From Escherichia coli O157:H7 (GTDB lineage: Bacteria > Pseudomonadota > Gammaproteobacteria > Enterobacterales > Enterobacteriaceae): 64,000 nucleotides of DNA. How positions within the stretch are numbered: the stretch's first letter is position 1; each line of letters begins with the position of its first letter. Where the stretch lies: the NCBI RefSeq assembly GCF_013167455.1, contig NZ_CP038328.1. The stretch is one strand, 5' to 3'. Shown here one piece after another: positions 25,408-26,259 of the stretch. The notes beneath the pieces were generated by a model, which saw only the letters and a list, made by a program, of their open reading frames with translations, searched no databases and was not told the DNA's origin. Made by a program: the position numbers and the translations under genes.

Positions 25408-26259
25408 TTATCTCATAATACCCATAAAGCCATGCACTCCCATATACACCCCGACTAAACCAATTAACAGACTGGAAAAATAGGGGGCGCGTTTAGCGAG
25501 AGTGTTAAATCCGCTCCAGCGTTTTGCAACTTGTTGAACACTGATTGCCGCTCCAACGCCTACTGTAACCAGCGTTAGTGCCAGACCGATGCTGAAACTG
25601 ACGACCAGTGTTGCGCCCAGTGTCAGGGCTTTCAACTGAATGCAAATCAACAGCACGGTAATTGCTGCCGGGCAGGGAATAAGGCCACCTGTTAAGCCAA
25701 ATAACAAAATTTGCCAGTTGGTGACCTCTCTACCATCAAAGCGTCGTTTAATGTCATTGGCATGGGCTCGTGCATGGGCATCCTGATACTCTTCGTTGTC
25801 GCCATGTTCATGATGGTGATGATGTTCGTGGTCGTGGTCGTGGTCGTGGTCGTGGTCGTGGTCTTGATGATGTTCGTGATCGTGGTGATGATGCTCATGC
25901 ATATTCTCCAGCCAGTTGCGTTCGCCGCGCCAGGTACGCCAGAACATCCAGAAAGCGGTGCTAATAATGATCACTGCGGAAATCAACTGGAGCCACGGTT
26001 CTGCTGATTGAGCAGTAAAGCGCTTGCTGATCACCATCCCGCCAAAGGCAATCAACCAGACCACTGCGGTATGCGAAATGGTTGCTGCCAGTCCGAGCAT
26101 CACCGCCTGTTTAATGGTGCCTTTGATGGCGATGATAAACGCCGCCATCATCGTTTTTGAGTGCCCTGGTTCCAGGCCATGAAGCGCACCAAGTAAGATG
26201 GCGCTGGGGATGAAGAACCAGGCGTTTCCTTGCTGAAGAAGAGTTGTAAATTCGGTCAT
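25408..26259 (-). CDS. rcnA: Ni/Co efflux pump RcnA with His-rich loop
   Basis: 283-aa membrane protein with HEHHHHDHEHHQDHDHDHDHDHDHEHHHHHEH loop. Confidence 0.9.
   Translation of the reverse strand: MTEFTTLLQQGNAWFFIPSAILLGALHGLEPGHSKTMMAAFIIAIKGTIKQAVMLGLAATISHTAVVWLIAFGGMVISKRFTAQSAEPWLQLISAVIIISTAFWMFWRTWRGERNWLENMHEHHHHDHEHHQDHDHDHDHDHDHEHHHHHEHGDNEEYQDAHARAHANDIKRRFDGREVTNWQILLFGLTGGLIPCPAAITVLLICIQLKALTLGATLVVSFSIGLALTLVTVGVGAAISVQQVAKRWSGFNTLAKRAPYFSSLLIGLVGVYMGVHGFMGIMR
25828..25863. repeat. Hexanucleotide tandem repeat (gtggtc x6) encoding the (HD)n part of the RcnA His-rich loop
   Basis: Six perfect contiguous copies read directly from the sequence. Confidence 0.8.

Follow-up and report, generated by a model that had tools for sequence, protein, structure and literature searches.

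A perfect hexanucleotide array within RcnA's histidine-rich loop very probably corresponds to the TR7/O157-19 typing locus of Escherichia coli O157:H7

Introduction

What does it mean that a gene for nickel and cobalt efflux in Escherichia coli O157:H7 contains, in frame, a perfect tandem repeat of a six-nucleotide unit, and does the number of repeat units matter to the protein? The locus lies in a 64-kb stretch of O157:H7 DNA (64,000 nucleotides, hereafter the window). An initial annotation of this sequence described six contiguous gtggtc units encoding alternating His and Asp in the metal-binding loop of RcnA, regarded the tract as slippage-prone, and took the greater length of this RcnA relative to that of K-12 to be consistent with repeat expansion. 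The role of the RcnA loop, export versus chelation, has been described as unresolved (PMC11247825). Here we place the tract within its gene, compare it with published variable-number tandem repeats (VNTRs), describe its copy number in complete E. coli genomes, and weigh the readings of its variation.

Results

The repeat lies in frame within the loop of RcnA

The six contiguous gtggtc units described in the initial annotation were borne out by direct reading of the sequence, as an exact (GTGGTC)6 tract with zero mismatches at window positions 25828-25863. The period-6 pattern already begins at 25826, 2 nt ahead of the perfect tract, and Tandem Repeats Finder delineated a looser period-6 array at 25826-25886; across the whole 64-kb window the program reported two other tandem arrays only. 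An 18-nt probe (3 units) had its matches inside the tract only; when the window was shuffled 100 times with dinucleotides preserved, no match occurred. The tract is in frame within a minus-strand open reading frame (ORF), where the coding strand reads (GAC-CAC)6 and specifies (Asp-His)6 at residues 133-144, in the protein context HHQ-DHDHDHDHDHDH-EHHHHH. On the plus strand, the ORFs that cross this region translate to poly-Val or Arg-Gly and simply follow from the repeat.

The assignment of this ORF to RcnA, also proposed in the initial annotation, was corroborated by its match to the Pfam NicO family (PF03824; 240.4 bits against a cut-off of 27.7, E 3e-71, residues 13-282), by the annotation rcnA in every matching RefSeq genome, and by rcnR and rcnB alongside. 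The rcnR-rcnA-rcnB neighbourhood plus an RcnR operator is present at the locus (Table 1). EDL933 and many other O157:H7 genomes have an rcnA with 100% identity to this gene, and of 5426 complete E. coli genomes, 5365 contain rcnA. From its near-identity to K-12 RcnA outside the loop, this RcnA allele would be expected to have Ni/Co efflux activity.

In agreement with the alternating His-Asp run placed earlier in the metal-binding loop, (Asp-His)6 falls in a hydrophilic, His-rich loop formed by residues 107-178 (72 residues; 22 His, 11 Asp and 9 Glu), which is edged by Arg/Lys and lies between the N-terminal and C-terminal hydrophobic segments. By the positive-inside rule the loop would be cytoplasmic, which agrees with a published prediction (PMC11247825). 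A sequence search of the PDB returned no RcnA/NicO relative, only spurious His-tag-like matches, so there is no solved structure in which to place the loop.

Table 1. Features of the rcnA locus, in window coordinates
Feature	Position	Strand	Basis
Perfect (GACCAC)6 array, very probably the TR7 / O157-19 VNTR	25828..25863	-	sequence, Tandem Repeats Finder, published unit (PMC2246123)
Hypervariable His/Asp/Glu core of the RcnA loop, 114 nt, M120 to E157	25789..25902	-	allele comparison
rcnA CDS, 283 aa, nickel/cobalt efflux protein, NicO family	25408..26259	-	ORF, Pfam, annotation
TR7 forward primer site, CGCAGTGATCATTATTAGC	25960..25978	-	exact, unique in window
TR7 reverse primer site, TGCTGAAACTGACGACCAGT	25590..25609	+	exact, unique in window
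rcnA-rcnR operator, three TACT-G6/7-N-AGTA RcnR boxes	26297..26351	.	sequence; duplication
rcnR, Ni/Co-responsive repressor, divergent from rcnA	26400..26672	+	CsoR/RcnR-type domain, annotation
rcnB, accessory subunit, downstream of rcnA	24852..25190	-	RcnB domain; coordinates transferred from EDL933 annotation

The array matches a standard O157:H7 typing locus

The table of a seven-locus O157 typing scheme lists a locus, TR7, with the unit GACCAC and the primers CGCAGTGATCATTATTAGC and TGCTGAAACTGACGACCAGT (PMC2246123). Both of these TR7 primers (Noller et al. 2003) mapped to rcnA and nowhere else in the window; they flank the array, with a predicted amplicon of 389 bp (25590-25978). Consistently, the published TR7 allele of EDL933 has 6 units (PMC3777172), and the EDL933 genome (L001) carries n = 6, equal both to that allele and to the window. 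TR7 and O157-19 are one locus (PMC3768571), which is used in the O157:H7 multilocus VNTR analysis (MLVA) schemes of Noller et al. 2003 and Keys et al. 2005. Genome position, repeat unit, primer sites, EDL933 allele and reported polymorphism range all match the tract, and we found no difference. We are thus highly confident that the tract is the TR7 (= O157-19) VNTR of O157:H7, a pure GACCAC hexanucleotide array inside rcnA. This locus is, we presume, also the one called VNTR-19 in the PulseNet protocol. Because unit, primers and EDL933 allele all agree with TR7, the present observation is a rediscovery of a standard typing marker, and the repeat has been known for two decades as a routine means of fingerprinting O157:H7. 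The typing literature, as far as its text was available to us, handles TR7 as an anonymous marker, and that text makes no mention of (Asp-His)n coding in the RcnA loop.

Copy number varies by whole units among E. coli genomes

With the 114-nt loop core as a query, ~324 of the 5426 complete genomes gave a match, and most of these were O157:H7 or O157-like strains; 135 of these genomes matched at 99% identity or above (n = 6) and 67 at 95.0% (n = 7), the remainder carrying other alleles. We drew the copy-number spectrum from these identity bands, from the target lengths in an even 60-row sample, and from a list of large alleles (Table 2). The total is ~325 genomes with a Nei diversity of ~0.75 computed from these counts, which are non-independent samples because outbreak clusters share alleles. 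Published diversities of TR7 are 0.65 and 0.71 (PMC2246123, PMC3768571).

Table 2. Copy number of the GACCAC array in complete E. coli genomes
Units (n)	Genomes	Basis of count
4	~38 (Sakai = 4)	derived from identity bands and even sample, not enumerated singly
5	~40	derived from identity bands and even sample, not enumerated singly
6	132-135	
7	67	
8	~24	target lengths of two-piece alignments (synthetic-query BLAST)
9	~10	target lengths of two-piece alignments (synthetic-query BLAST)
10	~7	target lengths of two-piece alignments (synthetic-query BLAST)
11	4	target lengths of two-piece alignments (synthetic-query BLAST)
15	2	target lengths of two-piece alignments (synthetic-query BLAST)

We read alleles of n = 2, 4, 5, 7, 8, 9, 10, 11 and 15 directly, and every unit in all of them was GACCAC. 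E. coli genomes with identical flanks differed by whole units only, over a range from n = 2 to n = 15, and all length differences among the compared E. coli rcnA alleles were confined to the hypervariable loop core. Comparison of loop length across strains thus showed that repeat number varies among them. Together with a serial-passage study in which TR7 changed at a rate of 1.3e-4, through 1 insertion and 2 deletions that were all single-unit (PMC3777172), these data uphold the initial description of the tract as slippage-prone. Herd and outbreak series were concordant: strains 147-149 all had n = 8, and strains 107, 109 and 110 all had n = 4.

In an exact-sequence look-up of synthetic RcnA proteins, the n = 2 form was found on 33 contigs and the n = 3 form on 140, and the n = 4 and n = 5 forms on at least 1000 contigs each. 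The same look-up in the protein collection returned none of the forms with n = 6-10, though RefSeq genomes encode n = 6, 7 and 9-11; a perfect (DH)n tract of n ≥ 6 was likewise absent from 134 RcnA sequences taken from this collection. This suggests that the missing proteins reflect a gap of the collection for long low-complexity tracts and not a true absence.

Arrays of 2-5 GACCAC units with other left flanks occur in non-O157 strains (L012-L015, L022). One O157-type rcnA, with n = 8, resides on the plasmid pNJS001-2 (L023, 438,722 bp) of the pig isolate NJS001, the sole plasmid-borne copy among 5364 places at which rcnA was found. In O157:H7 PV15-279 (L021), the array of n = 9 is accompanied by an extra GATCAT (Asp-His) near the start of the loop (MHDHEHHHH...), so fragment sizing would score this allele as 10 units, a case of size homoplasy at the typing locus.

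K-12 and most other E. coli carry a different loop

The 274 aa given for K-12 RcnA in the initial annotation was confirmed (L002), as compared with 283 aa in the window, and the O157 and K-12 proteins are almost identical outside residues 121-157. The K-12 loop reads MHGHDYEHHHHDHEHH-HDHG-HHHHHEHG-E and the O157 loop MHEHHHHDHEHH-Q(DH)6E-HHHHHEHG-DNE-E. Relative to K-12, the O157 loop has lost GHDY (-4), has Q(DH)6E in place of HDHG (+10) and has gained DNE (+3), for a net change of +9. As judged from these alignments, the two loops are different haplotypes, so that 283 versus 274 aa is a net figure and not pure expansion. An O157-type RcnA with a single DH unit would be 273 aa.

Loops of K-12 length (274 aa), without a perfect repeat, are present in ~5000 of the 5426 genomes. 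Outside the O157-type loop, 50 of 55 full-length rows in the even sample were exactly 264 nt, equivalent to 274 aa. Four of the five length exceptions were shorter (249, 243, 243 and 237 nt), and the three of these that we read contained a different hexamer array, likewise perfect, with the sequence (CACGAG)3-5. Length thus varies little among alleles that lack a perfect repeat.

The (CACGAG)n class comprises strains E20 (L005), 1517k (L006) and CE-O153H30 (L008), with n = 5, 4 and 3 and proteins of 269, 267 and 265 aa, respectively. The array encodes (His-Glu)n directly after Met120, near the start of the loop, and is an independent VNTR in the same RcnA loop. The fifth exception, E. coli strain 10 (L007), has a K-12-like RcnA of 278 aa with one GACCAC in CAA-GACCAC-GAA, a context that the O157 array shares. 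It is plausible that this single unit represents the unexpanded ancestor, or seed, of the array, or else a recombinant between the loop haplotypes.

A third RcnR box and a Sib array are present in the window

Over 5852 nt around rcnA, the window departed from EDL933 at a single place, a 20-nt gap in the intergenic region between rcnR and rcnA. This region (26260-26399) measures 140 nt in the window versus 120 nt (122 nt in one case), with two boxes, in EDL933, K-12 and 14 other full loci that we read. The RcnR operator has been described with two sites (PMC7055735); the window has three because a 20-bp unit is tandemly duplicated. The boxes lie at 26297-26311, 26317-26331 and 26337-26351, the first of the form TACT-C7-AGTA and the other two TACTA-C6-AGTA. 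Among 5361 complete genomes, the 20-bp operator duplication was found in no O157 genome. We read three-box variants in EC26, O111:H8 8E and WW2 (different, 23-bp duplication); together with N39 and N47, whose matches are of three-box length, about five unrelated genomes carry such a variant. The third RcnR box is the most unusual feature near the tract, and it is rare. Its effect might be a stronger or more extended repression of rcnA and rcnR; alternatively, it may have arisen through misassembly of the source record.

Elsewhere in the window, a 328-bp unit is repeated 2.8 times (58600-59509). This array contains three SIB_RNA genes in tandem (Rfam RF00113, 140-145 bits), on the minus strand at 58726-58868, 59054-59196 and 59382-59530; Sib RNAs act as the antitoxins in the type I toxin-antitoxin system Ibs/Sib. 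K-12 presumably has two Sib copies at this locus.

Hexamer arrays recur in the RcnA loop of other species

In Salmonella enterica, the locus STTR5 is a 6-bp VNTR with the unit CACGAC in yohM (= rcnA); it lies between two membrane domains and is a highly polymorphic core MLVA marker (PMC1781188, PMC5183578). Its unit is GACCAC read 3 nt later, and the gene is the same. Its copy number is typically higher, with 8-14 units in S. Typhimurium. Shared ancestry of the STTR5 and E. coli arrays is doubtful; the fact that most E. coli lineages are without the array argues for an independent origin of TR7 and STTR5. Klebsiella pneumoniae MLVA locus 27 is likewise a 6-nt VNTR in rcnA, with 0-19 copies, but its unit, CATGGT as printed in that paper, differs from GACCAC (PMC3948817). 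A lineage-specific expansion of the same, predicted cytoplasmic, RcnA loop has also been reported (PMC11247825); that loop is far larger (100-123 aa with 33-53 His), is fixed in its clade, and is not described as a polymorphic tandem repeat.

A cross-species scan for (GACCAC)4, with one genome per species, yielded at least 120 stretches, mostly in GC-rich genomes. Among the scan matches listed, 5 stretches lay in the central loop of RcnA homologs, and Salmonella was absent. RcnA/NicO homologs with (GACCAC/CACGAC)n, n = 4-7, were those of Citrobacter sp. Cu233, Mitsuaria chitosanitabida, Thiolinea disciformis and a Beijerinckiaceae MAG (L095, L116, L090, L030 and L025, including Streptomyces); in Streptomyces pseudovenezuelae the hexamer array is in the central loop of a weak RcnA/NicO homolog. 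Hexamer arrays coding His-X dipeptides thus arise repeatedly in the RcnA loop. This recurrence could reflect selection, or equally just microsatellite-prone His/Asp-rich coding DNA.

Discussion

The array bears the signature of slippage because its alleles change by whole units, its units are identical, and its codon use contrasts with that of the surrounding loop. Within the repeat, all six His codons are CAC and all six Asp codons GAC, as against CAT 12 versus CAC 4 and GAT 3 versus GAC 2 in the rest of the loop. We propose that the array grew from one GACCAC unit, which may still be visible in the K-12-like allele of strain 10, and that its length would change through slipped-strand mispairing at replication. 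Each step would then add or remove one Asp and one His, that is, two potential metal ligands. Copy number would drift nearly neutrally within bounds, with a mode of 6-7 units. We regard such bounded near-neutral drift as probable, because the loop has ~22 His already and is likely disordered and cytoplasmic. Neutrality is nevertheless something that we infer; the unimodal, bounded distribution (4-11 units, rarely 15) would equally fit stabilising selection.

Coding simple-sequence repeats in other bacteria often act as phase-variable contingency switches, and the array might by that general precedent be thought to turn rcnA on and off. However, a 6-nt unit keeps the reading frame at every change, so that the gene is never switched off; the O157-type alleles that we read, from n = 2 to n = 15, all keep a full ORF, and in the sole rcnA found with a frameshift (L012), the cause is a 1-nt deletion that lies elsewhere than in the array. 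We therefore rejected a phase-variable locus, a reading to which we give practically no credence. Nor does technical error offer a credible account of the variation. Short-read assemblers can collapse repeats, but the array, at 12-90 nt, is shorter than a read, the variation recurs in closed genomes of many laboratories with concordance inside outbreak and herd series, and PCR fragment sizing has shown the same polymorphism since 2003; an assembly or sequencing artefact has a negligible chance of being the cause.

The more substantive alternative to near-neutral drift is that the number of Asp-His units is under selection because it determines the RcnA loop's gating or its capacity to bind metal, with high-rate reversible mutation allowing lineages to fit their Ni/Co efflux or buffering to the niche. 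In its favour, the loop is the sole variable part of an otherwise near-invariant RcnA; perfect hexamer repeats arose in it repeatedly, as (GACCAC)n, (CACGAG)n, CACGAC in Salmonella and CATGGT in Klebsiella; the GACCAC hexamer is found in RcnA homologs of Citrobacter, Mitsuaria, Thiolinea and the Beijerinckiaceae MAG; and the copy-number distribution is bounded and unimodal. The authors of the Salmonella study speculate on functional constraint at STTR5, although they do no more than speculate that extreme lengths may impair YohM. A comparison is offered by tolA of E. coli, likewise an in-frame coding VNTR, in which synthetic copy-number alleles are reported to modulate stress tolerance (PMC3477136); it differs from rcnA in being another gene with a longer unit. 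Against selection, no measurement ties copy number to phenotype: our search of the literature on rcnA/yohM repeat variation and function returned typing papers and speculation, and no experiment relating copy number to Ni/Co. Moreover, His/Asp-rich low-complexity coding DNA forms repeats spontaneously, and CAC and GAC are ordinary codons; most of the stretches of at least four GACCAC units listed in the cross-species scan are without an adjoining detectable RcnA homolog. With the histidines already in the loop, one unit is a small change, and most E. coli genomes manage with a fixed-length, repeat-free loop. Close isolates also share alleles, as expected for a drifting marker. We thus consider it unlikely that copy number is a selected setting of the loop. 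A broader version, in which the Asp-His array and the independent hexamer arrays of other E. coli lineages, Salmonella, Klebsiella, Citrobacter and distant homologs all serve as a selected, reversible means of tuning Ni/Co efflux or buffering, appears quite unlikely. On that broader reading, the array of this strain might work jointly with its third RcnR box, itself a rare feature.

Collectively, the initial reading of the tract is supported with one correction, which concerns the net 9-aa figure; the identity with TR7/O157-19 was not recognised there. As a discovery the observation is minor, and STTR5, its counterpart in Salmonella, is just as standard a marker. In practice the locus serves for strain typing; if selection on copy number were true, the typing locus would be no neutral marker but a functional device for evolvability. 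The analysis explicitly connects the anonymous TR7 with (Asp-His)n in the metal-binding loop of RcnA, supplies an allele spectrum over 5426 complete genomes, and adds the observation that instability in the length of the RcnA loop goes together with a perfect hexamer repeat.
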